Shown here: positions 17,050 to 40,638 of the stretch, piece by piece | Position numbering within the stretch: position 1 is the first letter of the stretch | How the letters are laid out: the number at the start of each line of letters is the position of its first letter | DNA from: Trypanosoma brucei | Taxonomy: Eukaryota | Assembly: GCA_000002445.1 (NCBI GenBank) | Contig: CP000066.1 | Location: 1,312,001-1,376,000 of the forward strand | DNA length: 64,000 bases | Direction of reading: 5' to 3' | Notes under the pieces: model-generated | What the model was told of the DNA's origin: nothing | The model's input: only the letters and a program-made list of their open reading frames with translations | The model's database searches: none | Translations under genes and position numbers: made by a program

Positions 17050-18990
17050 AGGTTCACAGGTAGTGAAATCGATCTATCCCTCGTATCCTTCAGTGTGTTT
17101 GCGCACCTGATTCAAGAAAGGGAAGACAACAAATGAATACAAAAAAAAAAACAACACTCACTGCAGCGCTCATTATTGATATCAGGGTTGCTGTTGTTGT
17201 TGTTGTGTGTGCGTGTGTGTTTGAGTTTGTTAGGTTTCAACTGTTTCGCAGAAATATCATGACCATCCCATTACCTCACTTCTTATCTTTGGCTTTTTAT
17301 TTTCCTCCCTTCCCATTCGTTGAAAATAACCGCCATCCCTATTCTTTTTTCTTTTTTTTTTTTCCATTATGGTGTCACAACCCCCCTCCTCTTTTTTTCT
17401 CTCTACCATCCTCACGTACCTTTTTTACTCACCAAGACGCATAAACAAGAGCGGTAAAAGTAAGGTATTCACACATACGTTCCCCCCTTCTCTGTTCCCT
17501 CCTTCCTCATACACGCTAAGAAGTTTCTTGTGATAAATGTTATCACAACTTCAAAAGCAGAGCAATCAAAGATAATTAAAAAAAAAATGAGGATAAAGCC
17601 AAAAGAGGTAAAAAAAAAGTAATCACATCTCCAGGCTGTTCACGGTGGAAGCAGCCGAATCAACCACAACCACCATCCATATACATTTTTTTTTTTTACA
17701 GAAAAAAGAGGGGGAACTTGAAAATAGCAATAAACGTAGCGAAGTGAGACGAAATAAGAAAAAGGAAGAGTAACACGCAAAAAAGGCATTTAGAAAAAAA
17801 CAACAACAACAACAACAACGAAACAACAAAAAAGGGGAGGGGTGACCGGGTACAAACAGAAGCACATCACACATCAACACACATTTAAATATATAAACAT
17901 TTTTGAGACCGCACGCAGAAAGTTGGATAAAAAGAAGAAAAGGCTACAGTGGCAAGAAAAAGTAGGAAAATAATAAAGACGAAAATAGGGTGAGGGGGAG
18001 AAAACAATAATATAAACAATAATAACAATAATTATGATGATGATTGGTGCCATTTTTCTTTTTCACTGCTTTTTTCTTTTTTTTTTTTAAGTTTTTATTG
18101 TCTTTTCCTTGATCTACTGCCTCAAAATGCGCAACAAAAATTAAACTCTATGGATTTTTTTATATAATTTTATTCTCCTTTCTCCTTACGGAAAAATGCA
18201 TCACTTCATAAATGACAAATAGCAAAAAACAGAAATGCGAAAAAACAAAAAAAAAAACATGTCCAGCACATTCCCCTCCAAGTATTGCTTCTTTTTTTTT
18301 TTTTGTCCATCTGTTTGTATCCAGCATAATAATAGTAATAGTGGTAATAACAAAAATAATAATAACAAAACAATGAAGAAAATTTCTTTTTCACGCCCCG
18401 TTATTTTTGGTAAGCATTCACCTCTTCTTTTTTTTTTTTGGTCCTCCTGCACCCTTCATTCTTCATTTCTATCCCAAAATTTCTCAACATATAATTAGAA
18501 GCGGTCATTAAACTACCCATTCGCTCATTCATTCATTAAGGAAAAGGAAAAAAAAAAACAACATCAAAAATACCAAAAAGAGAAGGAGACGCACACCCGC
18601 GGAAACGCGTATATGAATATATAAATATATATTTATATACGGAAGGTAAAACAAAAACGAAGAAAGAAAAAAAAGAAAAAAAGAGAGATGAAGCGTTAGA
18701 AGGGGTTCAAGGAATAAAATAAGGTAGCAAAAAAGAAAAAAAAAGAAATCAAAACATATATTGGAAAAAAAAACAAGCAGAAAAGAAAACTTAGCCGTAT
18801 CAATCAAGTAACGCCCCCTAAGTGCACTTTGAAGAAAAAATTTCAGGAACATGGACAGGTACTTAGCTTTAAAGGAAGCAAAAAGAAAAAAAAAGGAAAT
18901 ATTGAAAGGTAAAATGCACATCACGACTTGTGTTGGTTCATGCGGGTGGAGTGGAACCTTGCAAACCGCGATAGATTTTCTTTTTTGTTT

Positions 18991-20631: not shown

Positions 20632-20940
20632 TCAAAAAAAAAAAAATTGCGACAATAATAACAACTATTATTATTACTACCACTACTAAAACCTCGTTGA
20701 CACTGCTTTCAGCGCGGCTCGCCAACTGACGAAATGCTCTTGTCCCAAGACTGCGGTTATGCGGCGACCAAACAACAAAAAAGGAAAAAGAAAAAAATTC
20801 TCTACTAATAACAAAGTAAGCCGCCGGTGTCTCTAATGGAAAAAGAAGGATATGAGGACCATGGGAAAGGGAGAGCGAATAGGCTTCTACAGAGCAAATA
20901 CAAAGGCAGTAATGATCACACCAACCCGATAAATGCACAC

Positions 20941-20966
20941 ACACACACACATATATATATATATAA
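20941..20966. repeat. Compound (CA)5(TA)n microsatellite
   Basis: acacacacacatatatatatatataa. Confidence 0.9.
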
Positions 20967-22485
20967 TCGCAAAACGGATGACCAACAGCACGTCAAAATG
21001 ACACTTGATCATTACCTCTTCCGAATCCGATTCCTGTGCGCACCGTCCAGCACCCGAACTAACGAAGACACCATTCATCTGCGTGTGTTCTTACAAGTGA
21101 ATGGGGCCTTCGTTTGGAATTTCCGCATAAACGCGGCACATTTGGCGGTTTCTCACAAAAAACCACATCGTCCCCAAAATATCCCCGCTATCATGTTAAC
21201 GGACAATCAAATTAACTTTTCCACATTGTCAACAATGGTGAAACAAAATCAAAGGAGTTCGACGGGGGGATACATGGTTCGTCCGGTACTCATTTCCTTC
21301 TTTGGGATTCCAACTTAATGCATAAAATATAATCACGACACAAGGTCGAAACAAATTCAGTCCTGCCTCACAAGATGTCTCTCTCATAGAGGTTTGGTTA
21401 TGACATTGGATTGAGGTTACGAAATAGTGAATGGGGAAACGCAAAAGTAATGAGCAAACGGTCAACCACAAGATTTTATCACGTTCTGTTCATTTCGTAA
21501 TAACCGACAGCAAATACGGTGGACATTATCCTAAACATTTTTTTCTTATCTGGCTGAAAATACTCACAAGACCAGAGACATTGAGACAAGGCAACAGAAA
21601 ATATGGAAGAGAGGGAAAATACAAACACGAAGTGAGTAAACGGAAGAACGTCACCGCACCACAGATATGTGGTTATGGCAAAAGTACACACAGCGGCAGA
21701 TTGCAACAGATACATTACTCACAATCAGGTAATTAAAAAAACATAAGGTTTGCACAGTAAAAGTAGTGAAGAAGAAGCAAAAGGCAAAAAGTATTTTTAA
21801 AAAAAAAGCATTGAGAAATGCGCGCTTGACACGCGGCCATTCGGAGTCGCACGAGGTAGAGCCAGAAAAAAAAAAGGACGAAAACGCCCGTCCACGTAAG
21901 GAGTAGTGTACCAGCACGCTCCTTCAACTTTGTTTTTTTTTTCCTCTCCAACCACACCAAGCCGCAAACAGATACAAAGACACAATAATTCCCGTCTCCG
22001 AGTTAACCCACATGCGACCTACCTGATCAAAGAGTGGAAGGTGAAGGCAAACAAAAAAAAGCAAAGACCAAAGCAAAACAGGTTACAACGAAGAGTTGTA
22101 AGGATATAAACACCCGAAAATCCCATTATTCAAAGATTCCGTTCTTACAAAGAAGGGTCAATACGAAAAACATGTCAGGATTCGTAGCAACAAAGTGATG
22201 TCAGAGAATAGACATCAAGGAAAATCATGTTTGAGTAACCAAACAAGGTACCTACATTTTTTAGAGTGTATTCCCATCTTTTCTTCATTACACACTTCGT
22301 TACATACAAGTACTTCCTTCATACACAAAAGATCTGTCCGCAAACATTCCCGCATATTCCATCACAATGTAAAGACCCATTCGTACAATCCAATTTTTTC
22401 GTGTTGCAGTCTCGCACGTCTCAGCAACACTGCATATCCCTTCAGCTCATAATCCCAACAGACACACGCATATAAACCGCAAAGC

Positions 22486-24468
22486 CTAAATAAGAGCAAA
22501 CTCTCGAACACTGTCAAGGGCGGTACGCGCCTTCGTTAAAGCAGTCATCATCGCCGTGGTGGCGCTTCGTTGCTGAGCAATTTGTGGTGGCTCCGCAAGC
22601 AATTCCTCAACGGACCTTTCAGAATACAGTTTTCGCACCAACCTGGCATACACATCCTCACGCAACTTAGTTATCATGAGAAGAGTGATCGCTTTCGGTA
22701 CCTGATCAGCAACATTACTCTTCACAACAGCAAAGTAGCCCTCCACCATCTCACGAACCGCATCGTTGATATACTGTTCATGCGTTGACATTTTTTCATT
22801 TAGTTTGATGGAAGATGGTACAGCACCCATGTTGGATTTCTCCCCTTGAGAGACAATTGATTCTATCAGTCCCTTTCCACTTTTATCCTTGCTCACCTTC
22901 GCCTTACCCTTATCTTTATCATTTTCATTACCACCTTCCTCCTTTGACTCTTGGGCATTGCCACCAAATATTTTGATGAACGATCGCTGCACAAGATCCT
23001 CCATCAGTGGATGTTTCACATTGATGAAACCACGTTCAGCAGCAATGATTGTTTTGACATGCTCTACCGTGGGCGCACGGAATTCATTCAGCGCCTCACG
23101 GCATATATCCACAACAGCCTGCTTCAGTTTGGGGAAGCGCTCCAACTTGATTGAGCAGGCGTCGACGATCTTTATGAGTTCCTCGTACGTAAACTGCACG
23201 CACTTGAGTGACGGATCCTCCAAGCGCCCGATCTGCTGTTTTGCAAGTGCAACAAACACGTGATCTGATGGAAACAGGGACGCGTGCATACCAGCCATGT
23301 TCCGCGCATTAATGCGAATATACTCGTCGGTAAGGTCATTCTTCGCACTGATGCCGTTAACATATGTAGAGAAACATTCATGGAATATATAGTCAAGGCG
23401 GGCGCCACCAAGCAGTTCCTTAGAAGCATCCGATGCACCGCCATCAATTGTGTGGTTGATTGCGTCGCAAAACACTTTGATTAATGCCAGCATGCTAGCA
23501 CCAGGATCCACTCTGTCATGCTCACGCATACCAAGCCTTTCCATCTGTTTCCTTGTATCATCCAAGAGCTTGTCTACATGACTCTTTAACTCTGGAATAA
23601 CCATCTTGATGTGCTCGAGCAAGAGACCATTTAACTTCTGTGTCAGGTACTCTGTGCCCTGTGTGTCAGCAATGGACGCATATGCCGGGTGGTTGCGAAA
23701 AAATTCCTTTTCATCGTCACGAGCCGCTTGCATCCCCTTTGATGTATTTATATCATGTTGGCTGCGGTTAACGACACCAACGAAGCCGTGTCGAAGAGAC
23801 AAAACCTTCCCAGTAAGGATGTCGTACGCATCAGTGCCGCGATCCATAAGGTCCAGTTTCGTTAACACGGCAATTGTTCTCTCCCCCTCGGGATCCAACT
23901 GCTTGGCTATCTGGAGCGAAGAGCTCGTGGCCAAGTCAGCGTTTGCAGGAGATATCGCAAGAATAATTGTGTTTGAAGGAGAGATGTAACGCGTTACCAT
24001 ACTCTTGATCTGCCGATCGATATCTTTTGGTTGGTCACCAACGGCGTTCATCACGAGCCCGGGAAGATCGACAAGTGTCAGGTTAAGCACATGGGATGAG
24101 TAAATCTTGAGATTAATAGGCTTATCCGTAATAGCGGAGTGCCCAGCAACTTCCGTTGTACGGTTCTGAATCTCCTCATTGATCTCAGAAAAATCAAAAA
24201 ACTTCTTATTGGGTCTGTGGAGAAACTCACCCCATTCATCCTTGTTTGACCTTGGTAACTGTACCAGCTGCAAAACCAGTGGGCACCGTGTCACAATGCC
24301 TGAACCACGAGGAAGGAAATCCTTACCGACAATAGCCTCCAGCACACTGCTTTTGCCGGCACTCTGACTTCCCACAACAGCAATCTGTGGGAGGTTAAGC
24401 TTGATGTTCATCTTGACATTTGCAAAGGCATCGTGTAGGTCATTGACGACCGAGATGAGTCGCTCCAT
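22486..24468 (-). CDS. DLP1: Dynamin-like protein, copy A (probably TbDLP1)
   Basis: 660-aa ORF. Dynamin GTPase motifs: G1 VVGSQSAGKSSVLEAIVG; DLPG; TKLD. Middle domain and GED present. About 97% identical to copy B at 32510..34492. Assignment of DLP1 versus DLP2 to copy A versus B is from recalled Tb927.3.4720/4760 gene order and is uncertain. Confidence 0.9.
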   Translation of the reverse strand: MERLISVVNDLHDAFANVKMNIKLNLPQIAVVGSQSAGKSSVLEAIVGKDFLPRGSGIVTRCPLVLQLVQLPRSNKDEWGEFLHRPNKKFFDFSEINEEIQNRTTEVAGHSAITDKPINLKIYSSHVLNLTLVDLPGLVMNAVGDQPKDIDRQIKSMVTRYISPSNTIILAISPANADLATSSSLQIAKQLDPEGERTIAVLTKLDLMDRGTDAYDILTGKVLSLRHGFVGVVNRSQHDINTSKGMQAARDDEKEFFRNHPAYASIADTQGTEYLTQKLNGLLLEHIKMVIPELKSHVDKLLDDTRKQMERLGMREHDRVDPGASMLALIKVFCDAINHTIDGGASDASKELLGGARLDYIFHECFSTYVNGISAKNDLTDEYIRINARNMAGMHASLFPSDHVFVALAKQQIGRLEDPSLKCVQFTYEELIKIVDACSIKLERFPKLKQAVVDICREALNEFRAPTVEHVKTIIAAERGFINVKHPLMEDLVQRSFIKIFGGNAQESKEEGGNENDKDKGKAKVSKDKSGKGLIESIVSQGEKSNMGAVPSSIKLNEKMSTHEQYINDAVREMVEGYFAVVKSNVADQVPKAITLLMITKLREDVYARLVRKLYSERSVEELLAEPPQIAQQRSATTAMMTALTKARTALDSVREFALI

Positions 24469-24736
24469 AGGATCAAAAGTATCTAATAAAGGTGTAAGAT
24501 ATTAGTGTGCATGTGTGTGTGAAGAGGGGGAGATATAAACATCAACAAGGAAAGAACCACATGCAAGAACAATGATAACGAACATAAGGTGGGAATTCGG
24601 AAGACACTGTCACACATTTATCGTCACAGAGGTAGATTTTGCCTCATAGAAGAAGAGGGAAATATGATCTATTTTACAGGGTATGAGGTTGTGCGGCCCC
24701 CCTTACCTAGTCACAGCAGTATGGATCAGTAATCTT

Positions 24737-25903
24737 TCACCCGGTTCCATCCTCATTTTTATCGTCACTCAGAAGACCAAGCAACCGCTGTCGCCGCCGC
24801 CTCGCCTCAGAAACCTCCTGCAAAACGTGTGGTGCGTACGGTATCCTAATTCGCAGTTCACCATTCACCGAGCTGCGTTGTACATTAACACCCGAGGGAG
24901 CAACCTCTTGGCTTAACGGAACCTGGATGAGTTTCTCCTTAACAAACACTCGTATGTAGTTCACTTCCACTTGTACGTCAATTAGCGTTGTGGAGAGGAA
25001 TCTCGGTACCTTCACTGTCAACACAACTGCTTCACCATCATCCGCTTCCTCGTCAAGAGTGAAGGGGAGTTTGGGTTCGTTTCTCAGCAGAAGCCGCCCG
25101 TGCTTCGCTATCTCCTCCTCCGCAGTGAGACGCTGCGGCTTCCTTTCCAACTCTTCACGTATCGCGCCGAACTGACTAGACCGCTCACGTTCCCGTTGCT
25201 CTTCCCTTTTGCGCCTCTCCTCCTCCTCCTTCTCGCGCAGCATCTGGAGCCGCTCCTCTGGAGTATGGCCATATAAACGCTCACCCTTCTCGTTGTATCG
25301 TGGCGGAAAGGGGTCAACGCCTCGTGCAACCATCTCTGACTTGATACGCTCCGCTTCCTGCAGTCGCAGTGCCTCCTCATTCACAGCGACTGAAATGTCG
25401 TCTTTGCTTTGACGCGCCTCCAGCCGCTCTGTCTTAATTACCTCTTCTCCATCGAGCTCACGCAGCTGCGGCAGCGCGTGCACAACGTAGGCACGGTACC
25501 CGGCCACCTTCGTGCATGGGTTTCCAGTAAGATGCAACTGGTCCAGGAAAGCGTTCGCCCGCAGGCGCTCCACGCATGTCACGTCCGCCACAAAGTTCAG
25601 CGTCAGATCCAGACGCTCCAGGGCCTCACATCCCTCGAGACCTTCGATGTAAGTAATATTGTTCACAGCAAGGTTCAAATATTTGAGATACTTGAGATGC
25701 TGTAGGCCCTCGATGCGGGAAATGTAGTTGTTGCACAAGTATAGGATCTCCAGCTCACGACACGCGTCCCCAATGAGCTCGATCCTTTCAATGTCCTGCT
25801 GATGCAGTGCCACCTCCTTCAGGTTGCTTAGGCAACCTTCATTGTGCTCCGCGCGACGCCGAAGAAGGTCGGTAGTGATGCGGCCCATTGCTTGTATGAA
25901 CAA
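24737..25903 (-). CDS. LRTP: LRRC6/TILB (seahorse, LRTP-like) leucine-rich-repeat + coiled-coil + CS-domain protein, copy A
   Basis: 388-aa ORF. MGRITTDLLRRRAEHNEGCLSNLKEVALHQQDIERIE...ILYLCNNYISRIEGL...LNLAVNNITYIEGLEGCEALERLDLTLNF..LTGNPC is collinear with human LRRC6 (MGWITEDLIRRNAEHND...LSLHQQEIERLEHI...[43 protein letters not shown]..MGNPC). A charged coiled-coil follows (EKEEEERRKREEQRERER). A C-terminal CS/p23-like domain is present (VVLTVKVPRFLSTTLIDVQVEVNYIRVFVKEKLIQVPL, human [35 protein letters not shown]). Confidence 0.8.
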   Translation of the reverse strand: MFIQAMGRITTDLLRRRAEHNEGCLSNLKEVALHQQDIERIELIGDACRELEILYLCNNYISRIEGLQHLKYLKYLNLAVNNITYIEGLEGCEALERLDLTLNFVADVTCVERLRANAFLDQLHLTGNPCTKVAGYRAYVVHALPQLRELDGEEVIKTERLEARQSKDDISVAVNEEALRLQEAERIKSEMVARGVDPFPPRYNEKGERLYGHTPEERLQMLREKEEEERRKREEQRERERSSQFGAIREELERKPQRLTAEEEIAKHGRLLLRNEPKLPFTLDEEADDGEAVVLTVKVPRFLSTTLIDVQVEVNYIRVFVKEKLIQVPLSQEVAPSGVNVQRSSVNGELRIRIPYAPHVLQEVSEARRRRQRLLGLLSDDKNEDGTG

Positions 25904-26095
25904 TTAAAACAAAGGTCCGCTGCTTATGCCGCCCGCCCTATAAGCAACAGGATACTCTATACCTTGAAGAAGGAACGGAAAGAAGTGATGAAATAGGGAG
26001 AACGCGGCAATACCGGAATGCTGATGCACTAATGGGACCGCATAGCACCGCTACGGAATTCTCGATAGAAACTACACCCGAGACCATTACGTACC

Positions 26096-27370
26096 TCAGA
26101 GTGGCGGCATGGTGGGGGCTCCACAGCTACTATCCCCAAATGCCATCTGCAGTGCCCGCCGCGCGTCGTCAAAACGCTGGTGATCCCCAGACAACATCGC
26201 CTCGTCCACCACCTCAGTGTGGCGCAGCAGCACCGTGTCTTCGTCGCGCAGTTTGTGTCTGTACTCATAGTGTCCCAGCCGCACCAACTCACGCCCCGCA
26301 ACGGACGCGCGCATAAGCGTCAGGAAGGTGTCCATCAACACCTCGTAGAACGGTGACGACATGGCATGCCGCCGCAGCAGCATGTGCAAGCCTGACACCG
26401 TTGAGTCCAGCGCCTCGTGCGAGCCTGCGGGAAAGACGGCGCGGATAGCATCACGGTGGCGGAAGTGGTAGTCAAGGCGGCGTCCGAACACGAACTCACG
26501 CGCCGCATGATTTGTGCATGCCATCGCTATGGTTGCTACAGCGCATGAGGGCAACGGAGATCCCAGTGGAAGTCCCAGCACACCATTCACCAGCTGCTCT
26601 GTTGCACTAGTCGCGTGCTGCAGATAAGACATCGTCGCTGACACGGACCCAGGGTACTCACTACTTACCAACCCGGCACCCATGCTACACAGTGGTACAC
26701 ACCCGTTCACGAGCGAAAGAATTTCCGCTGCCAATGGTCCATCTAACCACGTAACACTCTCTCGTCGCCAGAGCCGCTCCGTCAGCGACTGCAATGAACG
26801 GGAAAGCTCAACGTCAGCCTTACCACCCAAAGCGAACGAAAGCGTGACACCGCTATTCCTATTGGCATCACCTCCATCACACGCAGCCGCAGACGTCACG
26901 GCCCATTCCCTTGCAAAAAGAGGCCCGGACACAACAACTAACTTCGATGGCAGATCCTGAGACACCCGCCCAAGCTGCTCCAGTGGCGTCAAGCCTTCTC
27001 TAGTAAAACCACGTGTGAACAGGAGCATCGGCGCGTCAGCGTGATTCTGCGCGCACCTAACCATCGGGGGCGTATGAGCGCCGTCATTTTCCAGGCACGT
27101 CGCTGGGACGCATGAAAGTACAGCATCCACACCTACGTCATCCTTTATGGGCTCCGCATCTACAGCGCGCACTGTCAACCCCGATGGCGCTCGTATGCGT
27201 CGGTCAGCCAGGCGGAAAGTGCGTGAGCCATACTGCACATCATGAAGGTAGTCACGGTCACGCCCTACCATCGTCACCTCACAAGACGCGGCCGCCCCAT
27301 TCGCTAGCAGAGAGAGGGCACATGCAGTCCCCAGCTCCCCACTACCAAGCACAAGTAGTCGGGTGCGCAT
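26096..27370 (-). CDS. Hypothetical protein with N-terminal NAD(P)-binding Rossmann-fold motif, copy A
   Basis: 424-aa ORF. MRTRLLVLGSGELGTACALSLLANG fits the GxGxxG dinucleotide-binding pattern of GPDH-like or ketopantoate-reductase-like oxidoreductases. The rest is not confidently assignable by eye. Identical to the copy at 36120..37394. Confidence 0.55.
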   Translation of the reverse strand: MRTRLLVLGSGELGTACALSLLANGAAASCEVTMVGRDRDYLHDVQYGSRTFRLADRRIRAPSGLTVRAVDAEPIKDDVGVDAVLSCVPATCLENDGAHTPPMVRCAQNHADAPMLLFTRGFTREGLTPLEQLGRVSQDLPSKLVVVSGPLFAREWAVTSAAACDGGDANRNSGVTLSFALGGKADVELSRSLQSLTERLWRRESVTWLDGPLAAEILSLVNGCVPLCSMGAGLVSSEYPGSVSATMSYLQHATSATEQLVNGVLGLPLGSPLPSCAVATIAMACTNHAAREFVFGRRLDYHFRHRDAIRAVFPAGSHEALDSTVSGLHMLLRRHAMSSPFYEVLMDTFLTLMRASVAGRELVRLGHYEYRHKLRDEDTVLLRHTEVVDEAMLSGDHQRFDDARRALQMAFGDSSCGAPTMPPL

Positions 27371-27740
27371 GACAAATTCACAGATCTGCCCCGTACCTCA
27401 CCGCTCCAAACATCAAACCTTGGAGAGGCAACATCAAAGGAGGATAGGGAACAACAAAGACATATGGAGGAGTAGCAACCGCAGGCTGCAACACTGTAGT
27501 GACGGGGAACCAACAAAAAATATGCAAACGCCATGTCCACCACTCACAAGCAAGCTGGTGGGAAGTCTCCCGATGAATGGTAAAATAAATGTTACCCACT
27601 CATGCGCTAGCAATAAACTTTACCAATACTACCTCCTTCATGTTTCTCATTTCTCCCTCCCCAACCCTAAAAATAAAATTCACCTGTGTTTCCTGCACAC
27701 ACAGTCATGCGTAGTGGAGCCATGCACAAAATATACTGGC

Positions 27741-30356
27741 TCACCGCGGAAAGAACAGGTAGGAGAGCTTTTGTCCACATCCCCACCGGCTCTGTAACCA
27801 GCCGCTCATCCTTATGCGCTCCACAGCTCGGTGCACGGCCAGTCGCGCATGAGGAAGCGGATTCAATCGGAAGAATTCGTCGAACTCCTTAGCATATGCT
27901 TCACCCGTGAGTGAAGAGCCAACAGCTTCCACGATGGCCTGAATCCGAAACGTTCCGCTTCCCCACTGCTTCTCGATTCCCTGGAAGTGCTTCTTGAACA
28001 GCGACCAGACATAGCCATTTGGAAGAGAGGGGCTTCCCGCCATCGCAGAAAATATCACACCACCATACTGTGACCGGATACCGTCGTTATAGATACAGCG
28101 CTTCGCAATACCCTCGACAAATTCGGCATCCTCGGCATAGCAGACGGCTCGCAGCAACGAGCGGCATAACTCTACGTTGTCATGAGCCTCCGCAAACCGA
28201 TTCCACACAGTCTGCGCACGTGCCGAAGTTTCCCCGGGTCCTAAGCGTATATACGCTGCCAGGGACATGGTAAGCGTGTCGGCGGTATACGTTGACCCTC
28301 CCAGATAAGCATCTGCTTCCTTCAGTGCCCACTCAACTGCTGGCAGCGCGAGTGCCTCCTTTGCAGACAGGCAATGAAGTGCCGTGGAAATGCATGCGTT
28401 GATAAAGAAGGCACGCTGCAGGCGCTCCTCTGCCGTACACGGTTCTGTCGAAACAAGCTTCGTCGCCACAACCATAATCTGGTACATTAGATTGTGTCGC
28501 AGCTCCCGCCGCACGTTGCCATCTTCCACGAATCCAAGGAAGTCATTCATATCGTGGTAGTACTCCTGCCACACTCCCGCATTCAACTCTCGCTCTGTGA
28601 GGACGCACCGGAGGATAGACAAACGCTCCACGTCATTATTTCCCATGTACACGGACGCCAGTGTGTCTGCAATCAAACCACAACGGTCAGGGATGGTAAG
28701 AGACTTGTATGCCCCCAACAATGACGAGAAGCTTGCTTCATCGTATCTGCAACGAAAGAAGCCTCGCCTCCGCGGGTTTGCGTTAATCCAGGGCGACTGA
28801 GCGAGCTCTTTAGGGAGATCCACACGCTGTTCCCCGCTCCCCCGCAAGGCGACACGGTGGCTGGTCCCATTGGCGCCTTCCAACACCACAGGCACACACC
28901 ATAGAGTACTCCTCCGCTCAGTCGCAGAGGCAAATTGACAAGGCTCTTGGCGCAGTATAACTACGCCAGACGATGGGCGGCTGACGTGGACAAGAGGGAA
29001 ACCCATCTGTGTTGTGAAAGAATCCATCGCCTCCGTCAGTGGGACCCCAGAGGACTCTTCCAGTGCCTCCCACAGTTGTTTCGTCGTTGTTGCGCCATAG
29101 CGATGCTTTTTGATGTAATGGGCCACCGAAGATGCCCACTTCTCGCCTAGGAACGCCTCTAGCATGTGCACCAGACCCATCCCCTTGTCGTAGCTAATCG
29201 CGTCGAATATCTGAGTAATCTCCGCGGGATCGCGGATGGGAACTTCCACAGGATGACTGTGCTCGTACATGTCACTTATCAGTGCGCTCGCCACACTTGC
29301 GTTGGCGTCCTCGTTGGCCCTCCATGCCGGCTGTAATTGGTGGGCAGCGTCATAGCCACACCACGAGGCAAATCCCTCCTTCAGCCATAGTCCTTCCCAC
29401 CAGTTGACGGTCACCAGGTTGCCAAACCAGTTGTGCGACACCTCGTGGCAGATCAACTCCGCGGCACCCTTCAGTGCTGCAACACTGGACGTTTCTTCAT
29501 CCACCAAAATGGCCTCCACGCAGGCAATGCAACCCCAGTTTTCCATCCCCCCGATTGGAAAGTCCGGTACGGCGACGACATCTAACTTGGGTAGGGGGTA
29601 CTTGCAATCAAAGAACTTCTCGAAGTACTCCAATGCAAAGGCGGTAGTGCGGAGTGCGAATGCTGCGCGCTGCAGCTTTCCAGGTACTGTGTAGACCCTT
29701 ATCGGTATGCCACAGGTTGTGGTACCAATGTGTTCCAGTTCCCCCACGAAACACGCGGTGAGATATGGAGGCACTGCGGGCACCATCTCAAAATCATAGG
29801 TCACGACATTGGACTCCACCTTCTTCGCACGGAGCGGACCGTTCGACAGCACCGTGTAGTTTTCCATGTCGCACGGAAGGGACACACGGAGCTTGAAGTC
29901 TGCACGGGCTGCCGGCTCGTCCTGACAGATGTAAAAGCAGCGCGCTGCTGTCGGCTCAAAATGCGTAGCAGCCATGCGGTGCTCCGTGCCGTCACCAGTT
30001 TTGAAGCACACACGGTAAAAGCCCCTCATTTCCTCTCGAATTTCTTGCGTGTAGCTGAACGTCACCGTGTGCTCCTCCGCAGTTTCACCACTCAGCTGCA
30101 ACTGCAAGGTGCTGGCCTCTTGGTTGTGCCCCACAATTGTCGCCCCACACACCTCGTGAATAGCCATCGTTGAGTTGTAATGCAACTGCAGCTCCTTTGA
30201 TCCTTCCACATCAGCCGCCCTTCGCAGTACAATTGTTTCCTTCCCATCGTACTTCCAACCTGCGAGGTCTACGCTGACGTGCAAGTCGTAGGACACAGGG
30301 ACGAAGGGGTTGCGTAACTTCACCGTATTCGCGGCATCTGAGGGGAGAGTTGGCAT
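27741..30356 (-). CDS. M1-family zinc aminopeptidase (puromycin-sensitive/aminopeptidase N-like), copy A
   Basis: 871-aa ORF. GGMENWG (GAMEN exopeptidase motif). HEVSHNWFGNLVTVNWWEGLWLKEGFASW is the gluzincin HExxH-x18-E motif. ERAP1-like C-terminal helical domain. Confidence 0.9.
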   Translation of the reverse strand: MPTLPSDAANTVKLRNPFVPVSYDLHVSVDLAGWKYDGKETIVLRRAADVEGSKELQLHYNSTMAIHEVCGATIVGHNQEASTLQLQLSGETAEEHTVTFSYTQEIREEMRGFYRVCFKTGDGTEHRMAATHFEPTAARCFYICQDEPAARADFKLRVSLPCDMENYTVLSNGPLRAKKVESNVVTYDFEMVPAVPPYLTACFVGELEHIGTTTCGIPIRVYTVPGKLQRAAFALRTTAFALEYFEKFFDCKYPLPKLDVVAVPDFPIGGMENWGCIACVEAILVDEETSSVAALKGAAELICHEVSHNWFGNLVTVNWWEGLWLKEGFASWCGYDAAHQLQPAWRANEDANASVASALISDMYEHSHPVEVPIRDPAEITQIFDAISYDKGMGLVHMLEAFLGEKWASSVAHYIKKHRYGATTTKQLWEALEESSGVPLTEAMDSFTTQMGFPLVHVSRPSSGVVILRQEPCQFASATERRSTLWCVPVVLEGANGTSHRVALRGSGEQRVDLPKELAQSPWINANPRRRGFFRCRYDEASFSSLLGAYKSLTIPDRCGLIADTLASVYMGNNDVERLSILRCVLTERELNAGVWQEYYHDMNDFLGFVEDGNVRRELRHNLMYQIMVVATKLVSTEPCTAEERLQRAFFINACISTALHCLSAKEALALPAVEWALKEADAYLGGSTYTADTLTMSLAAYIRLGPGETSARAQTVWNRFAEAHDNVELCRSLLRAVCYAEDAEFVEGIAKRCIYNDGIRSQYGGVIFSAMAGSPSLPNGYVWSLFKKHFQGIEKQWGSGTFRIQAIVEAVGSSLTGEAYAKEFDEFFRLNPLPHARLAVHRAVERIRMSGWLQSRWGCGQKLSYLFFPR

Positions 30357-30639
30357 GTTAAACCCTTGATTGATAACTTGTTAACTTGTCTGAAAAGTGA
30401 GAAAGCGCAAGGTTGCAATCAGTGAGGACAACACGCGGCAGGAGGGGGGAGGGTTCGAGTTGCGAAAGAGGTGTGACAGGGCACAGAACGACCTCCTACA
30501 GCACGCAGTACAATCAAAGCGAAAAGGGATTTACACGGTGTAGAGCAATAGAGTTGAACTCGTTTTGGAGTGGTGCTTGGGTTTATTAATACTTTTTTTT
30601 TTTTTTGATTAACTGCCGATGTAAATAATTTTTTATTTG

Positions 30640-32390
30640 ATGTTCATAGGTTGATTGTATTTCTTGACGGTTTGACTGCTCTGATTTGCACTTTAGTTAT
30701 CTGTTGAAGCTGCATTATTGTTAACGCACGGTTTTGATTCCGTTGTTTTCCCACACCATGAAGGAGAAATATCTTTGAAGTTTGCTGTTGTGTTTTTGTC
30801 CTCATCATTTCTTTTCTGAGAAAATCTGAAAATAGATGGCCGTTCATTTATACCAGGTTGGTATATGGACCACTGTCATTTTTCTTCAAACCTTTGTTGC
30901 CATATCCCACAGATTTATCAAAACGGTATGCACACTGCAACAGAACAAACACTGTTCCCTTTTTTCCAGCACATTCGTCTGGCTGAGATGCCTGGTCACG
31001 TTGTTACCCTTTCAAACAGAGCGGTTAACTTTTCTTCGCCTAACAGAAAAAAATGCCTCACTCCATAGTTTAAAAGCTTCCGTTGGTCACATAATCGAAT
31101 GTTTTGTCCCTCCGCAGGACAACGCTGTCTCTACCTTCAGTGTCAGCGTTAACCGTTCGTTTTCCCCCATTAAACATGAATTGCGAGTGGTCTGGCTTGG
31201 CTCCGTGCGAACACGCATACTTTAAAGAACACGTCCCCGTAACCTCACGTTTCTAACGGAGTGAAAAGGTCCGACAGTATTCGAAACACGTGCAATTCAA
31301 CACAACGTGTGTGAAGGAAGAAAGAGCGGAAAAACAACACAAGTTATTGCGAAGGCAAGCAAGGAGTCAAACGCCACATACTCTTTCATTGCAAACTTTC
31401 ACTTGCATAGCGGGGCAGCAGACTCTAAGGCGCGCGGCGGTTAATAACATTGCGCTCCTACGGCTCAAAACCGGCGCTAACTTTGTTCCGTGCAAGCAGG
31501 ACTATGATGCAAGCAAAACCACACAGCAAAGAGACCTAGCCTACAATCGAGCCTTGACTCCAAGCAAACAGAAGGAGAAAGATTCGAATATATAAATCAG
31601 GAATAGAGAACAACAGCGCCGCCGGCTTGCAAACGAAAAACAGCAGATGACAAAAGGAATACAAATTTTCTCCGCTGCTCTCTCGGCGTATTTCTTTATG
31701 GGCAGAAGTTACAACACAACTCACTACAGTCAAAAATTGGAATTCTCTTCTGTATTTAGCACCTTTCTCAGTGATGGTGGCCTCTGATCTTGCTAACACC
31801 TCTCCGCACATCCCGGATACGGTGGCGACTTTCACAGGCCAGAGGAAAAGAAAAAAGAAACGGGGGAAAAACACTACCACCAATACTGAAAGAGAAGGTC
31901 CCTTTATATATTTTTGCTTCTTCGCACCATATTTCTTGCCCCTCTATCAGCAGCGACATGCAGGAGCAGCGTGACAAGAAGGCGATAGGAAACCAGAAGG
32001 CATGACATTTAGGTGCCACACCCGTCGCACCCCGTTAAGTGAGTAACAGCGATATAAATTAAAAACAAAAAAAGAAAAATAACGTCAGAACCAGAAGAAA
32101 TACAAAACAACGCCAGCCAAAAACAGAAAATAAAAATGATGCAGAGCACAAACGTCGATATGGGGAGCAGGAGCCACACCTGCCACACTGCCCTAAACGG
32201 ATAAACAATAAAAGGGCTCGCGTTACTAAACACAAGCAATATAGAACAATAACAAAACTTACCCAGCTCTTTATACTACCTCTACAACAACAAAATAATA
32301 AAGATATATATATATATATATCAGCGATACTACTGTTCCTTTGGACATATATCATCGATCGAAAAAACACGAAAAGAGGCCTTCCCCCAA
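30640..32390 (-). pseudogene. Decayed, 5'-truncated paralogous remnant of the 619-aa coiled-coil gene (40639..42498) in the inter-copy spacer
   Basis: Collinear degenerate similarity at about +10,024 to +10,040 offset. Example: 30701-30760 ctgttgaagctgcattattgttaacgca versus 40601-40630 ttgttgaagatttgtagctgttgttaacaaa. Example: 30835-30870 ttcttttctgag...gttcatttataccaggttggtatatgg versus 40755-40860 ttcttttgtgag...gttcatttgtgtgtggtagcatatgg. Example: 31745-31830 cctttctcagtgatgg...ggatacggtggcgactttcacagg versus 41785-41870 cctttctcagcgaagg...ggttacggcactgcactgg. Only short ORFs (under 120 aa) remain on the minus strand here. Confidence 0.5.
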
Positions 32391-32509
32391 ATGTAAAGAC
32401 CCATTCGTACAATCCAATTTTTTCGTGTTGCAGTCTCGCACGTCTCAGCAACACTGCATATCCCTTCAGCCCATAATCCCAACAGACACACGCATATAAA
32501 CCGCAAAGC

Positions 32510-34492
32510 CTAAATAAGAGCAAACTCTCGAACACTGTCAAGGACGGTACGCGCCTTCGTTAAAGCAGTCATCATCGCCGTGGTGGCGCTTCGTTGCTGA
32601 GCAATTTGTGGTGGCTCCGCAAGCAACTCTCCAACGGTCCTTTCAGAATACAGTTTTCGCACCAACCTGGCATACACATCCTCACGCAACTTAGTTATCA
32701 TGAGAAGAGTGATCGCTTTCGGTACCTGATCAGCAACATTACTCTTCACAACAGCAAAGTAGCCCTCCACCATCTCACGAATTGCATCGTTGATATACTG
32801 TTCATGCGTTGACATTTTACCGTTCAACTTAATGGAAGATGGTACAGCACCCATGTTGGATTTCTCCCCTTGAGAGACGGCAGATTCTATCAGTCCTTTG
32901 ACACCTTTATCCTTGCTCACCTTCGCCTTACCCTTATCTTTATCATTTTCATTACCACCTTCCTCCTTTGACTCTTGGGCATTGCCACCAAATATTTTGA
33001 TGAACGATCGCTGCACAAGATCCTCCATCAGTGGATGTTTCACATTGATGAAACCACGTTCAGCAGCAATGATTGTTTTAACATGCTCTACCGTGGGCGC
33101 ACGGAATTCATTCAGCGCCTCACGGCATATATCCACAACAGCCTGCTTCAGTTTGGGGAAGCGCTCCAACTTGATTGAGCAGGCGTCGACGATCTTTATG
33201 AGTTCCTCGTACGTAAATTGCACGCACTTGAGTGACGGATCCTCCAAGCGCCCGATCTGCTGTTTTGCAAGTGCAACAAACACGTGATCTGATGGAAACA
33301 GGGACGCGTGCATACCAGCCATGTTCCGTGCATTAATGCGAATATACTCGTCGGTAAGGTCATTCTTCGCACTGATGCCGTTAACATATGTAGAGAAACA
33401 TTCATGGAATATATAGTCAAGGCGGGCGCCACCAAGCAGTTCCTTAGAAGCATCCGATGCACCGCCATCAATTGTGTGGCTGAGTGTGTCGCAAAACACT
33501 TTGATTAATGCCAGCATGCTAGCACCAGGATCGATATTGTCTTGCTCACGCATACCAAGCCTTTCCATCTGTTTCCTTGTATCATCCAAGAGCTTGTCTA
33601 CATGACTCTTTAACTCTGGAATAACCATCTTGATGTGCTCGAGCAAGAGACCATTTAACTTCTGTGTCAGGTACTCTGTGCCCTGTGTGTCAGCAATGGA
33701 CGCATATGCCGGGTGGTTGCGAAAAAATTCCTTTTCATCGTCACGAGCCGCTTGCATCCCCTTTGATGTATTTATATCATGTTGGCTGCGGTTAACGACA
33801 CCAACGAAGCCGTGTCGAAGAGGCAAAACCTTCCCAGTAAGGATGTCGTACGCATTAGTGCCGCGATCCATAAGGTCCAGTTTCGTTAACACCCCAAGGG
33901 TCCTCAGACCTTCGGGATCCAACTGCTTGGCTATCTGGAGCGAAGAGCTCGTGGCCAAGTCAGCGTTTGCAGGAGATATCGCAAGAATAATTGTGTTTGA
34001 AGGAGAGATGTAACGCGTTACCATACTCTTGATCTGCCGATCGATATCTTTTGGTTGGTCACCAACGGCGTTCATCACGAGCCCGGGAAGATCGACAAGT
34101 GTCAGGTTAAGCACATGGGATGAGTAAATCTTGAGATTAATAGGCTTATCCGTAATAGCGGAGTGCCCAGCAACTTCCGTTGTACGGTTCTGAATCTCCT
34201 CATTGATCTCAGAAAAATCAAAAAACTTCTTATTGGGTCTGTGGAGAAACTCACCCCATTCATCCTTGTTTGACCTTGGTAACTGTACCAGCTGCAAAAC
34301 CAGTGGGCACCGTGTCACAATGCCTGAACCACGAGGAAGGAAATCCTTACCGACAATAGCCTCCAGCACACTGCTTTTGCCGGCACTCTGACTTCCCACA
34401 ACAGCAATCTGTGGGAGGTTAAGCTTGATGTTCATCTTGACATTTGCAAAGGCATCGTGTAGGTCATTGACGACCGAGATGAGTCGCTCCAT
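32510..34492 (-). CDS. DLP2: Dynamin-like protein, copy B (probably TbDLP2)
   Basis: 660-aa ORF with the same motifs as copy A. It differs at about 17 residues: ERTIAV to LRTLGV, TDAY to TNAY, LSLRH to LPLRH, REHDRVDP to REQDNIDP, CDAINH to CDTLSH, plus several C-terminal changes. The N-terminal GTPase domain is identical. Confidence 0.9.
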   Translation of the reverse strand: MERLISVVNDLHDAFANVKMNIKLNLPQIAVVGSQSAGKSSVLEAIVGKDFLPRGSGIVTRCPLVLQLVQLPRSNKDEWGEFLHRPNKKFFDFSEINEEIQNRTTEVAGHSAITDKPINLKIYSSHVLNLTLVDLPGLVMNAVGDQPKDIDRQIKSMVTRYISPSNTIILAISPANADLATSSSLQIAKQLDPEGLRTLGVLTKLDLMDRGTNAYDILTGKVLPLRHGFVGVVNRSQHDINTSKGMQAARDDEKEFFRNHPAYASIADTQGTEYLTQKLNGLLLEHIKMVIPELKSHVDKLLDDTRKQMERLGMREQDNIDPGASMLALIKVFCDTLSHTIDGGASDASKELLGGARLDYIFHECFSTYVNGISAKNDLTDEYIRINARNMAGMHASLFPSDHVFVALAKQQIGRLEDPSLKCVQFTYEELIKIVDACSIKLERFPKLKQAVVDICREALNEFRAPTVEHVKTIIAAERGFINVKHPLMEDLVQRSFIKIFGGNAQESKEEGGNENDKDKGKAKVSKDKGVKGLIESAVSQGEKSNMGAVPSSIKLNGKMSTHEQYINDAIREMVEGYFAVVKSNVADQVPKAITLLMITKLREDVYARLVRKLYSERTVGELLAEPPQIAQQRSATTAMMTALTKARTVLDSVREFALI

Positions 34493-34760
34493 AGGATCAA
34501 AAGTATCTAATAAAGGTGTAAGATATTAGTGTGCATGTGTGTGTGAAGAGGGGGAGATATAAACATCAACAAGGAAAGAACCACATGCAAGAACAATGAT
34601 AACGAACATAAGGTGGGAATTCGGAAGACACTGTCACACATTTATCGTCACAGAGGTAGATTTTGCCTCATAGAAGAAGAGGGAAATATGATCTATTTTA
34701 CAGGGTATGAGGTTGTGCGGCCCCCCTTACCTAGTCACAGCAGTATGGATCAGTAATCTT

Positions 34761-35927
34761 TCACCCGGTTCCATCCTCATTTTTATCGTCACTCAGAAGA
34801 CCAAGCAACCGCTGTCGCCGCCGCCTCGCCTCAGAAACCTCCTGCAAAACGTGTGGTGCGTACGGTATCCTAATTCGCAGTTCACCATTCACCGAGCTGC
34901 GTTGTACATTAACACCCGAGGGAGCAACCTCTTGGCTTAACGGAACCTGGATGAGTTTCTCCTTAACAAACACTCGTATGTAGTTCACTTCCACTTGTAC
35001 GTCAATTAGCGTTGTGGAGAGGAATCTCGGTACCTTCACTGTCAACACAACTGCTTCACCATCATCCGCTTCCTCGTCAAGAGTGAAGGGGAGTTTGGGT
35101 TCGTTTCTCAGCAGAAGCCGCCCGTGCTTCGCTATCTCCTCCTCCGCAGTGAGACGCTGCGGCTTCCTTTCCAACTCTTCACGTATCGCGCCGAACTGAC
35201 TAGACCGCTCACGTTCCCGTTGCTCTTCCCTTTTGCGCCTCTCCTCCTCCTCCTTCTCGCGCAGCATCTGGAGCCGCTCCTCTGGAGTATGGCCATATAA
35301 ACGCTCACCCTTCTCGTTGTATCGTGGCGGAAAGGGGTCAACGCCTCGTGCAACCATCTCTGACTTGATACGCTCCGCTTCCTGCAGTCGCAGTGCCTCC
35401 TCATTCACAGCGACTGAAATGTCGTCTTTGCTTTGACGCGCCTCCAGCCGCTCTGTCTTAATTACCTCTTCTCCATCGAGCTCACGCAGCTGCGGCAGCG
35501 CGTGCACAACGTAGGCACGGTACCCGGCCACCTTCGTGCATGGGTTTCCAGTAAGATGCAACTGGTCCAGGAAAGCGTTCGCCCGCAGGCGCTCCACGCA
35601 TGTCACGTCCGCCACAAAGTTCAGCGTCAGATCCAGACGCTCCAGGGCCTCACATCCCTCGAGACCTTCGATGTAAGTAATATTGTTCACAGCAAGGTTC
35701 AAATATTTGAGATACTTGAGATGCTGTAGGCCCTCGATGCGGGAAATGTAGTTGTTGCACAAGTATAGGATCTCCAGCTCACGACACGCGTCCCCAATGA
35801 GCTCGATCCTTTCAATGTCCTGCTGATGCAGTGCCACCTCCTTCAGGTTGCTTAGGCAACCTTCATTGTGCTCCGCGCGACGCCGAAGAAGGTCGGTAGT
35901 GATGCGGCCCATTGCTTGTATGAACAA
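34761..35927 (-). CDS. LRTP: LRRC6/TILB (LRTP-like) protein, copy B (identical to copy A)
   Basis: 388-aa ORF, 100% identical in translation to 24737..25903. Confidence 0.8.
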   Translation of the reverse strand: MFIQAMGRITTDLLRRRAEHNEGCLSNLKEVALHQQDIERIELIGDACRELEILYLCNNYISRIEGLQHLKYLKYLNLAVNNITYIEGLEGCEALERLDLTLNFVADVTCVERLRANAFLDQLHLTGNPCTKVAGYRAYVVHALPQLRELDGEEVIKTERLEARQSKDDISVAVNEEALRLQEAERIKSEMVARGVDPFPPRYNEKGERLYGHTPEERLQMLREKEEEERRKREEQRERERSSQFGAIREELERKPQRLTAEEEIAKHGRLLLRNEPKLPFTLDEEADDGEAVVLTVKVPRFLSTTLIDVQVEVNYIRVFVKEKLIQVPLSQEVAPSGVNVQRSSVNGELRIRIPYAPHVLQEVSEARRRRQRLLGLLSDDKNEDGTG

Positions 35928-36119
35928 TTAAAACAAAGGTCCGCTGCTTATGCCGCCCGCCCTATAAGCAACAGGATACTCTATACCTTGAAGAAGGAAC
36001 GGAAAGAAGTGATGAAATAGGGAGAACGCGGCAATACCGGAATGCTGATGCACTAATGGGACCGCATAGCACCGCTACGGAATTCTCGATAGAAACTACA
36101 CCCGAGACCATTACGTACC

Positions 36120-37394
36120 TCAGAGTGGCGGCATGGTGGGGGCTCCACAGCTACTATCCCCAAATGCCATCTGCAGTGCCCGCCGCGCGTCGTCAAAACG
36201 CTGGTGATCCCCAGACAACATCGCCTCGTCCACCACCTCAGTGTGGCGCAGCAGCACCGTGTCTTCGTCGCGCAGTTTGTGTCTGTACTCATAGTGTCCC
36301 AGCCGCACCAACTCACGCCCCGCAACGGACGCGCGCATAAGCGTCAGGAAGGTGTCCATCAACACCTCGTAGAACGGTGACGACATGGCATGCCGCCGCA
36401 GCAGCATGTGCAAGCCTGACACCGTTGAGTCCAGCGCCTCGTGCGAGCCTGCGGGAAAGACGGCGCGGATAGCATCACGGTGGCGGAAGTGGTAGTCAAG
36501 GCGGCGTCCGAACACGAACTCACGCGCCGCATGATTTGTGCATGCCATCGCTATGGTTGCTACAGCGCATGAGGGCAACGGAGATCCCAGTGGAAGTCCC
36601 AGCACACCATTCACCAGCTGCTCTGTTGCACTAGTCGCGTGCTGCAGATAAGACATCGTCGCTGACACGGACCCAGGGTACTCACTACTTACCAACCCGG
36701 CACCCATGCTACACAGTGGTACACACCCGTTCACGAGCGAAAGAATTTCCGCTGCCAATGGTCCATCTAACCACGTAACACTCTCTCGTCGCCAGAGCCG
36801 CTCCGTCAGCGACTGCAATGAACGGGAAAGCTCAACGTCAGCCTTACCACCCAAAGCGAACGAAAGCGTGACACCGCTATTCCTATTGGCATCACCTCCA
36901 TCACACGCAGCCGCAGACGTCACGGCCCATTCCCTTGCAAAAAGAGGCCCGGACACAACAACTAACTTCGATGGCAGATCCTGAGACACCCGCCCAAGCT
37001 GCTCCAGTGGCGTCAAGCCTTCTCTAGTAAAACCACGTGTGAACAGGAGCATCGGCGCGTCAGCGTGATTCTGCGCGCACCTAACCATCGGGGGCGTATG
37101 AGCGCCGTCATTTTCCAGGCACGTCGCTGGGACGCATGAAAGTACAGCATCCACACCTACGTCATCCTTTATGGGCTCCGCATCTACAGCGCGCACTGTC
37201 AACCCCGATGGCGCTCGTATGCGTCGGTCAGCCAGGCGGAAAGTGCGTGAGCCATACTGCACATCATGAAGGTAGTCACGGTCACGCCCTACCATCGTCA
37301 CCTCACAAGACGCGGCCGCCCCATTCGCTAGCAGAGAGAGGGCACATGCAGTCCCCAGCTCCCCACTACCAAGCACAAGTAGTCGGGTGCGCAT
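36120..37394 (-). CDS. Hypothetical Rossmann-fold protein, copy B (identical to copy A)
   Basis: 424-aa ORF identical to 26096..27370. Confidence 0.55.
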   Translation of the reverse strand: MRTRLLVLGSGELGTACALSLLANGAAASCEVTMVGRDRDYLHDVQYGSRTFRLADRRIRAPSGLTVRAVDAEPIKDDVGVDAVLSCVPATCLENDGAHTPPMVRCAQNHADAPMLLFTRGFTREGLTPLEQLGRVSQDLPSKLVVVSGPLFAREWAVTSAAACDGGDANRNSGVTLSFALGGKADVELSRSLQSLTERLWRRESVTWLDGPLAAEILSLVNGCVPLCSMGAGLVSSEYPGSVSATMSYLQHATSATEQLVNGVLGLPLGSPLPSCAVATIAMACTNHAAREFVFGRRLDYHFRHRDAIRAVFPAGSHEALDSTVSGLHMLLRRHAMSSPFYEVLMDTFLTLMRASVAGRELVRLGHYEYRHKLRDEDTVLLRHTEVVDEAMLSGDHQRFDDARRALQMAFGDSSCGAPTMPPL

Positions 37395-37764
37395 GACAAA
37401 TTCACAGATCTGCCCCGTACCTCACCGCTCCAAACATCAAACCTTGGAGAGGCAACATCAAAGGAGGATAGGGAACAACAAAGACATATGGAGGAGTAGC
37501 AACCGCAGGCTGCAACACTGTAGTGACGGGGAACCAACAAAAAATATGCAAACGCCATGTCCACCACTCACAAGCAAGCTGGTGGGAAGTCTCCCGATGA
37601 ATGGTAAAATAAATGTTACCCACTCATGCGCTAGCAATAAACTTTACCAATACTACCTCCTTCATGTTTCTCATTTCTCCCTCCCCAACCCTAAAAATAA
37701 AATTCACCTGTGTTTCCTGCACACACAGTCATGCGTAGTGGAGCCATGCACAAAATATACTGGC

Positions 37765-40380: not shown

Positions 40381-40638
40381 GTTAAACCCTTGATTGATAA
40401 CTTGTTAACTTGTCTGAAAAGTGAGAAAGCGCAAGGTTGCAATCAGTGAGGACAACACGCGGCAGGAGGGGGGAGGGTTCGAGTTGCGAAAGAGGTGTGA
40501 CAGGGCACAGAACGACCTCCTACAGCACGCAGTACAATCAAAGCGAAAAGGGATTTACACGGTGTAGAGCAATAGAGTTGAACTCGTTTTGGAGTGGTGT
40601 TGTTGAAGATTTGTAGCTGTTGTTAACAAAATGTGGGC

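Follow-up and report, generated by a model that had tools for sequence, protein, structure and literature searches.

Why should two genes that close two otherwise identical repeats differ from each other, and differ only in a scatter of very short patches? The question is raised by two dynamin-like protein (DLP) genes, TbDLP1 (Tb927.3.4720) and TbDLP2 (Tb927.3.4760), on chromosome 3 of Trypanosoma brucei TREU927. We analyzed a window of 64,000 nt (contig CP000066.1, positions 1,312,001 to 1,376,000; G+C content 48%) whose only long direct repeat is a pair of 8,210-nt units that align without gaps at an offset of 10,024 nt, each carrying four genes and ending with a DLP gene (Table 1). The copy in the downstream unit is TbDLP1, because it has the state E196/I199/A200 reported for DLP1 by Benz, Stribrna, Hashimi and Lukes (2017; PMC5421789). 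These authors described a four-gene duplication in which the other three open reading frames (ORFs) are 100% identical, reported only two DLP copies for T. brucei, and found 19 substitutions between them that leave the N-terminus invariant and were confirmed by sequencing of constructs. The terms gene conversion and concerted evolution are absent from their paper, as are a nucleotide-level structure of the differences and a dating.

The gene pair, its 19 differences, the invariant N-terminus, the distinct 3′ untranslated regions (3′UTRs) and a partial specialization of the two proteins are thus already published, and the process behind the pattern described below is of a familiar kind; to that extent the finding itself adds little. 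New here are 35 sites at which both copies changed in concert, 38 stable paralog-specific sites, a profile of silent divergence that decays around amino acid differences, and a four-unit array of the same genes in Trypanosoma vivax. Together they show that the two units evolve in concert and suggest that short islands of divergence within DLP are probably kept by selection on protein function.

Islands of divergence in homogenized repeat units

All 45 differences between the two units lie from 22447 to 23887; the 6,688 nt from 23888 to 30575 are identical. Had the 45 differences been placed uniformly, the chance of all landing in the first 1,522 nt would be about 1e−33. They are also clustered, with 29 of the 44 gaps between neighbouring differences being 5 nt or shorter (6.2 expected, maximum 16 in 100,000 permutations, P < 1e−5). 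Forty-four differences are coding and fall in 34 codons, 19 of which change the amino acid and 15 of which are synonymous. They form about 11 peaks of 1–19 nt, namely eight islands of several differences each and three single residues, and all eight islands include at least one amino acid change. An earlier account of this DNA from its letters alone (hereafter the sequence-only reading) had described the divergence as patchy and clustered; that description is correct, a uniform spread being ruled out, and its example strings are all present, as are the peptide pairs ERTIAV/LRTLGV, REHDRVDP/REQDNIDP and CDAINH/CDTLSH. It had also taken the stretch between its two main patches to be identical, where we find three isolated synonymous differences.

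Homogenization was followed through three genomes, TREU927, T. b. gambiense DAL972 and T. equiperdum, in which the full 8.2-kb units were aligned; Logan contigs of other T. brucei runs stop at the start of DLP and hence fall outside the comparison. Across the unit, divergence between TREU927 and gambiense amounts to about 0.4% of sites. At 35 sites, distributed across the whole unit, both TREU927 copies differ from both DAL972 copies. Six of these concerted sites lie within DLP between islands, the nearest of them 18–33 nt from an island, and at the concerted DLP sites T. equiperdum has the gambiense state. Parallel mutation cannot explain 35 such sites, which therefore record one mutation followed by copying between units: homogenization between the copies is ongoing, including in the segments between islands. 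A further 38 sites, all in DLP codons 194–650, show a paralog-specific difference common to TREU927 and DAL972, and the islands predate the split of the subspecies. The comparison of strains proposed in the sequence-only reading thus returns conserved paralog-specific sites rather than random recent mutations. That reading had posed conversion tracts and selection as alternatives; concerted and stable sites side by side support both acting together.

Seven sites are private to a single copy, five in TREU927 and two in gambiense. All lie in the 3′ part of DLP, and the 6.1 kb upstream of DLP holds no private mutations between TREU927 and DAL972. Because all seven fall there, homogenization is measurably less efficient around the islands. 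The three isolated synonymous differences (23305, 23194 and 23056) and the synonymous sites at island edges (22807 and 22759) are recent point mutations, since each is private to one TREU927 copy. The single-nucleotide polymorphism (SNP) in the 3′ flank shared by both genes lies at 22447 (T) and 32471 (C), three positions from the 22444/32468 given previously; the T is private to TREU927 DLP1 among the sequences that reach this position, the DLP1 loci of the other strains ending short of it.

The age of the islands was gauged from codons that specify the same amino acid in both copies, scored as the fraction written with a different codon at a given distance from the nearest amino acid difference. 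This fraction is 8/26 (0.31) at one codon, 2/21 (0.10) at two, 1/19 (0.05) at three and 4/367 (0.01) beyond (Fisher's test, distances 1–2 against more than three codons, P = 1e−7). On the same scale T. conorhini and T. cruzi marinkellei are 0.31 apart, and T. brucei stands at a saturated 0.57–0.61, twice as much, from the other trypanosome species examined. Silent divergence next to the islands is therefore at the level of separate species, and 0.31 is a lower bound because conversion erodes silent divergence. A naive estimate from within the islands gives a proportion of differing synonymous sites (pS) of 0.84, which is saturated, with 67% of third positions different; as it is biased by the way the islands are delimited, it was replaced by the distance profile.

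Selection, barriers to conversion and the origin of the islands

The process we favour can be put as follows. TbDLP1 and TbDLP2 end the two copies of a concertedly evolving 8.2-kb tandem duplication, in which gene conversion, possibly together with unequal crossing-over, overwrites one copy with the other, and new mutations are either lost or spread to both. Only short islands in the last two-thirds of DLP have escaped, most likely because the two proteins are not interchangeable and selection removes conversions that overwrite island residues. Silent differences one to three codons from a selected residue would rarely be split off from it by the end of a conversion tract and could accumulate, and those farther away would be wiped. 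In our judgement the islands are most likely maintained by selection on protein function and not by a barrier of a purely mechanical kind.

Concerted evolution of tandem arrays, with mosaics, is established in T. brucei (Jackson, 2007, PMC1855330; Jackson et al., 2010, PMC2854126). These surveys concern the same organism and the same process, with tandem duplicates homogenized within a genome, subspecies-specific mosaics, and divergent copies with remodelled UTRs. They covered single-gene arrays (in 2010, those of more than three copies), unlike the two-copy, four-gene unit studied here, and mention neither dynamin nor aminopeptidase nor Tb927.3.47. It is likewise known that divergence can peak around selected sites when duplicates undergo gene conversion, from the work of Innan and of Teshima and Innan and from exon 5 of the human red/green opsin genes (reviewed in PMC3924837). 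The opsin case is similar in its conversion-kept near-identity, in divergence localized at amino acid differences, and in an age greater than the flanks suggest; it differs in being one broad peak, whereas DLP has its very narrow peaks spread over four structural regions of one protein.

Published experiments are consistent with specialization and with distinct 3′UTRs. Benz et al. (PMC5421789) described 3′UTR primers specific to each copy and found lower abundance of DLP1 and higher abundance of DLP2 in procyclic forms; DLP1 alone rescues endocytosis and growth of bloodstream forms, and in procyclic forms neither copy alone fully rescues. A 2026 preprint restates the idea of specialization.

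Several observations speak against selection as the force that keeps the islands. The test of nonsynonymous against synonymous divergence (dN/dS) that the sequence-only reading had recommended gives no signal of positive selection (0.31 for the whole gene; pN/pS 0.35 for the islands), so the case for selection rests on persistence against conversion and not on rate ratios. The 19 variable sites are less conserved than average among homologues (mean 0.38 against 0.53, P = 0.007), as expected if many of the changes are merely tolerated. The four T. vivax DLP copies differ by four substitutions only and have no comparable islands; if the array is shared by the two species, then T. vivax has lost the islands or they belong to the T. 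brucei lineage alone. The identity of the gambiense copies may be inflated in part by repeat assembly, although that genome was assembled de novo.

The remaining point concerns the boundaries of the patches, which the sequence-only reading expected to be fixed under selection and variable under ongoing conversion. All peaks are kept between TREU927 and DAL972, but three are converted in T. equiperdum, whose DLP2 carries the DLP1 state at codons 336–338, 557–558 and 619–622 and the DLP2 state in the other islands; one boundary of this mosaic falls within the island at codons 554–558. Patch boundaries are therefore not immovable, and the islands are not indispensable in every lineage. As the T. 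equiperdum assembly is of moderate quality, with indel errors, and the comparison includes three genomes in all, the mosaic is given moderate weight. T. equiperdum lacks an insect stage, and relaxed selection on its DLP2, the procyclic-enriched copy, is a speculative explanation. The two T. equiperdum loci lie at 10001–11983 and about 20019–21983 of the fetched stretch, and the DLP1 copy is split by frameshifts, perhaps assembly errors.

A comparable case is UniProt Q8ITV0, the old GenBank entry for T. brucei DLP and the first to be published, which is of DLP1 type with a DLP2-type island in insert B (RVKGLIESAV), a disordered segment described below. This entry is riddled with frameshift errors, including two frameshifted stretches, and may be a polymerase chain reaction (PCR) chimera, a strain mosaic or a sequencing error. 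Taken with moderate weight, T. equiperdum and Q8ITV0 show that conversion can replace islands individually.

Could the islands instead persist mechanically, with no selection involved? All lie within 1.5 kb of the 3′ edge of the repeat, where only 120 nt of homology anchors a tract, and mismatch-repair rejection at existing differences could stop tracts and let the islands grow. The confinement of 45 of 45 differences and seven of seven private mutations to DLP near this edge would follow naturally, and the conversion of individual islands in T. equiperdum, the preference of amino acid differences for variable columns and a pN/pS below 1 would all fit. An edge effect alone is nevertheless insufficient, because the other edge of the repeat (30575) shows zero divergence, and the six concerted sites between islands show that tracts do operate in this part of the gene. 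A barrier of this kind leaves unexplained how the first dense cluster could arise under efficient homogenization, why every island holds an amino acid change, and why silent differences decay around amino acid differences specifically; the published functional difference between the two proteins also speaks against it. We therefore regard it as unlikely, but as the most serious of the alternatives.

A different possibility is that the duplicate is young and each island was made at once, by a clustered multi-nucleotide mutation or by a patch from a third DLP-like sequence or another trypanosome. The extreme density of the changes (nine in 19 nt, seven in 13 nt) within perfectly identical flanks is suggestive of such events, and single complex events would also produce a steep decay with distance. 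No donor is apparent, however: searches for a template of either version of any island returned only chance matches elsewhere in the window (both strands, up to two mismatches), two DLP copies are all that is reported for T. brucei (PMC5421789), and the islands of neither copy have nucleotide resemblance to T. vivax, T. melophagium, T. grayi, T. conorhini or T. cruzi marinkellei. Selection would still have to be invoked for eight events confined to 1.4 kb when the neighbouring 6.7 kb has none. Moreover, 18 of the 38 changes within islands are synonymous, about twice the roughly 24% expected by chance, and the amino acid is kept in four of seven codons of island 1 and four of five of island 6, the two largest; the changes thus fit many independent substitutions under purifying selection, not one random complex mutation each. 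We consider an origin of this type improbable. Recent random point mutations in a recent duplication, or errors of assembly, would suit the five coding differences and the flank SNP that are private to one TREU927 copy, but are refuted for the rest: the clustering is far beyond chance, 38 differences recur in the independent gambiense assembly and most of them in T. equiperdum, and the construct sequencing of Benz et al. confirmed the differences. Chance and artefact are thereby excluded, and concerted evolution with islands probably kept by selection is the reading carried forward.

Placement of the islands in a Drp1-type protein

The two proteins belong to the dynamin superfamily and are Drp1-type dynamin-like proteins. 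Pfam identifies Dynamin_N (E = 2e−54, residues 29–205), Dynamin_M (E = 1.5e−80, 213–487) and GED (E = 5.7e−23, 564–654), and the translations contain the P-loop GSQSAGKS and the G4 motif TKLD (203–206) of the GTPase (G) domain. The AlphaFold model shows long stalk helices, with a mean predicted local distance difference test (pLDDT) score of 83.7. PH and proline-rich domains have no Pfam matches in DLP; in their place is insert B (residues 504–546), modelled at pLDDT below 50 and without secondary structure. Likeness to human Drp1 (DNM1L) and to classical dynamin-1 lies in the domain order, the strong similarity (E about 1e−138) and the conserved TKLD, and the trypanosome proteins differ from the animal ones in lacking PH and proline-rich domains and in their short disordered insert B. 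The T. brucei paralogs are 3% apart, whereas animal Drp1 and dynamins are far more divergent. Before G4, DLP1 has RTIAV, which is the Drp1-like RT[IL]AV (RTLAV in human Drp1), and DLP2 has RTLGV, the dynamin-like RT[IL]GV; P224 of DLP2 is the counterpart of P236 in human Drp1.

Differences were placed using the AlphaFold model, for secondary structure and confidence, together with an alignment to human Drp1 (Table 1). The sequence-only reading had them confined to the middle domain and GED, with the whole GTPase domain identical. The identity from 23888 to 30575 stands, but it does not extend over the whole GTPase domain, where codons 194–200, D213N and S224P differ. Solved G-domain constructs align to DLP residues 1–298, and within these structural limits the G domain holds five of the 19 amino acid differences; Benz et al. 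(PMC5421789) counted three. Outside the middle domain and GED are also S530G, G531V and I538A in insert B, and E558G, which lies in a non-helical stretch just ahead of the GED helix.

Island 1 is inside Dynamin_N, on the strand that enters G4 (model strand 198–203). Island 2 falls in the loop 312–321, which leads from the second helix of the bundle-signalling element to the first stalk helix (pLDDT 67 for this block) and is three residues longer than its counterpart in Drp1. Islands 4 and 5 adjoin S537 and S540, published as DLP1-specific phosphosites beside the insert-B substitutions (PMC5421789). The change E558G is three residues before S561, which aligns with S637 of human Drp1. In human Drp1, S637 is a regulatory phosphosite and a target of protein kinase A. 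The paralogs could differ in kinase recognition near S561, which we offer only as a lead.

Table 1. Coordinates of the repeat units, DLP genes and differences between the DLP copies in the 64,000-nt window. Substitutions are written DLP1 residue, codon, DLP2 residue; positions of differences refer to the TbDLP1 copy.
Feature	Position	Strand	Description and basis
Repeat unit 1 (downstream)	22366..30575		Minus-strand genes for aminopeptidase M1, 424-aa hypothetical, LRTP, TbDLP1; gene content from ORFs and Pfam
Repeat unit 2 (upstream)	32390..40599		Matching four genes, ending with TbDLP2; ungapped identity, ORFs and Pfam
Spacer between units	30576..32389		1,814 nt, unique; provides distal 3′UTR and intergenic region of TbDLP2
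TbDLP1	22486..24468	minus	660 aa; exact match to XP_844064
TbDLP2	32510..34492	minus	660 aa; exact match to XP_844068
Shared 3′ flank of both DLP genes	22366..22485	minus	120 nt (~128 by BLAST), one SNP
Island 1, codons 194–200	23869..23887	minus	7/7 codons differ, 9 nt; E196L, I199L, A200G and four synonymous
D213N, S224P	23799..23832	minus	Single non-synonymous sites (23832 and 23799), G domain between G4 and G5
Island 2, codons 317–320	23509..23518	minus	H317Q, R319N, V320I
Island 3, codons 336–338	23456..23463	minus	A336T, I337L, N338S; first stalk helix
Isolated synonymous differences	23056..23305	minus	Three sites, each private to one TREU927 copy
Islands 4 and 5, codons 530–532 and 537–538	22855..22881	minus	S530G, G531V, I538A and synonymous; disordered insert B
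Island 6, codons 554–558	22795..22807	minus	5/5 codons differ; sole protein change E558G
Codons 570–571	22758..22759	minus	V571I in long GED stalk helix; synonymous change in codon 570 private to TREU927 DLP1
Island 7, codons 619–622	22603..22614	minus	S619T, E621G and synonymous; short helix after the break ending the GED stalk helix
A650V	22520	minus	C-terminal bundle-signalling-element helix

Which copy has moved away from the common state was assessed from T. congolense, entered as protein states only, and from other trypanosomatids. The prevailing state is found in DLP2 at L196, G200, Q317, N319, I320, L337, G558 and I571, and in DLP1 at D213, N338, S619 and E621. In an alignment of 68 sequences, position 200 is G in DLP2 and in 66 of 66 other homologues and A in DLP1; I571 is 82% conserved and replaced by V in DLP1, D213 is 89% conserved and replaced by N in DLP2, and the remaining sites are variable. 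The three changes at conserved columns count in favour of selection. Island dN to the outgroups is consistently higher for DLP1 than for DLP2. These polarities, the states at conserved columns and the higher island dN make DLP1 the more derived copy, and DLP1 is also the copy reported to be sufficient in bloodstream-form endocytosis. Saturation at third positions left the nucleotide-level comparison with T. vivax, T. melophagium, T. grayi, T. conorhini and T. cruzi marinkellei without information on the polarity of the islands.

In practical terms, the analysis yields a ranked list of candidate specificity determinants for the DLP of bloodstream-form endocytosis, consisting of the eight islands and three single residues. 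They fall in five candidate regions: the G4-proximal strand, the hinge between bundle-signalling element and stalk, the first stalk helix, insert B by the DLP1 phosphosites, and GED. The functional effects of individual islands are put forward as candidates.

The repeat unit and DLP arrays in other trypanosomes

Both T. brucei units run from 219 nt upstream of the peptidase ATG to 120 nt after the DLP stop, and the accessions matched by the DLP genes are deposited proteins of T. brucei brucei TREU927. Past the shared 3′ flank the sequences of the two copies are unrelated; the sequence-only reading had both the length of this flank, about 120 nt, and the unrelated DNA beyond it right. A sensitive BLAST search with the spacer returned the self-match only and no likeness to either outer flank of the array, and for this reason a simple duplicate-and-join event does not account for the junction.

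A long-read contig of T. vivax (SOPI01000639.1, 1271042–1320821) contains the peptidase, hypothetical, LRTP and DLP genes as a unit repeated four times in tandem, about every 8.8 kb (5703–21227 and 1–11577 of two fetched stretches). Its units begin 105–110 nt upstream of the peptidase ATG and end 79 nt after the DLP stop, and the inter-unit spacer of 1.1 kb is unlike either flank, which is the same architecture as in T. brucei; the spacers of the two species have no detectable similarity and are not alignable. Of the four substitutions that separate the T. vivax DLP copies, three are in regions variable in T. brucei, namely the hinge loop (codons 315 and 318) and insert B (codon 535), and at codons 315 and 318 copies 1–2 have one state and copies 3–4 the other. 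T. melophagium has three tandem copies of DLP only (6800–8791, 10001–11992 and 15977–17968 of the fetched locus). These copies differ at nine scattered coding positions, all outside the islands seen in T. brucei, and represent an independent amplification of DLP alone. A single DLP is present on a long-read contig of T. cruzi, in T. theileri, which is related to T. melophagium, and in T. grayi (assembly type not checked for T. theileri and T. grayi), and a T. cruzi marinkellei contig has one DLP and ends about 0.8 kb past the gene. Upstream of the T. cruzi marinkellei peptidase lies a gene of 653 aa, a length that made it a candidate second DLP; direct comparison showed it to be unrelated.

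The duplication has been stated to be restricted to the T. brucei subclade (PMC5421789). With four units in T. vivax and three DLP genes in T. melophagium this does not hold, and the belief in a DLP duplication peculiar to T. brucei needs correction. The T. vivax array and the single copies elsewhere would fit an old array of salivarian origin, and the duplication appears to be much older than the subspecies of T. brucei and may go back to the ancestor of the African (salivarian) trypanosomes. A more far-reaching proposal, which we hold only tentatively and think more doubtful than the selective maintenance of the islands, is that the array arose once in the salivarian ancestor and that DLP1 and DLP2 are old specialized paralogs whose age is hidden by concerted evolution. 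The micro-islands would then be the sole record of that age, DLP1 would be the more derived paralog, and T. equiperdum would be letting DLP1 overwrite the islands of its DLP2. More generally, the pair warns against dating tandem duplicates in trypanosomes by percent identity, which makes them look far too young.

Two further genes of the unit, both on the minus strand, deserve a remark. LRTP (24737–25888 and 34761–35912), a leucine-rich-repeat protein, is the orthologue of dynein axonemal assembly factor 11 (DNAAF11, LRRC6/TilB), with the domains LRR_9 and CS_DNAAF11_C and homologues that range to fish and green algae. The 424-aa hypothetical protein (26096–27370 and 36120–37394) has a weak N-terminal match to the fold of NAD-dependent glycerol-3-phosphate dehydrogenase (E = 1e−7).

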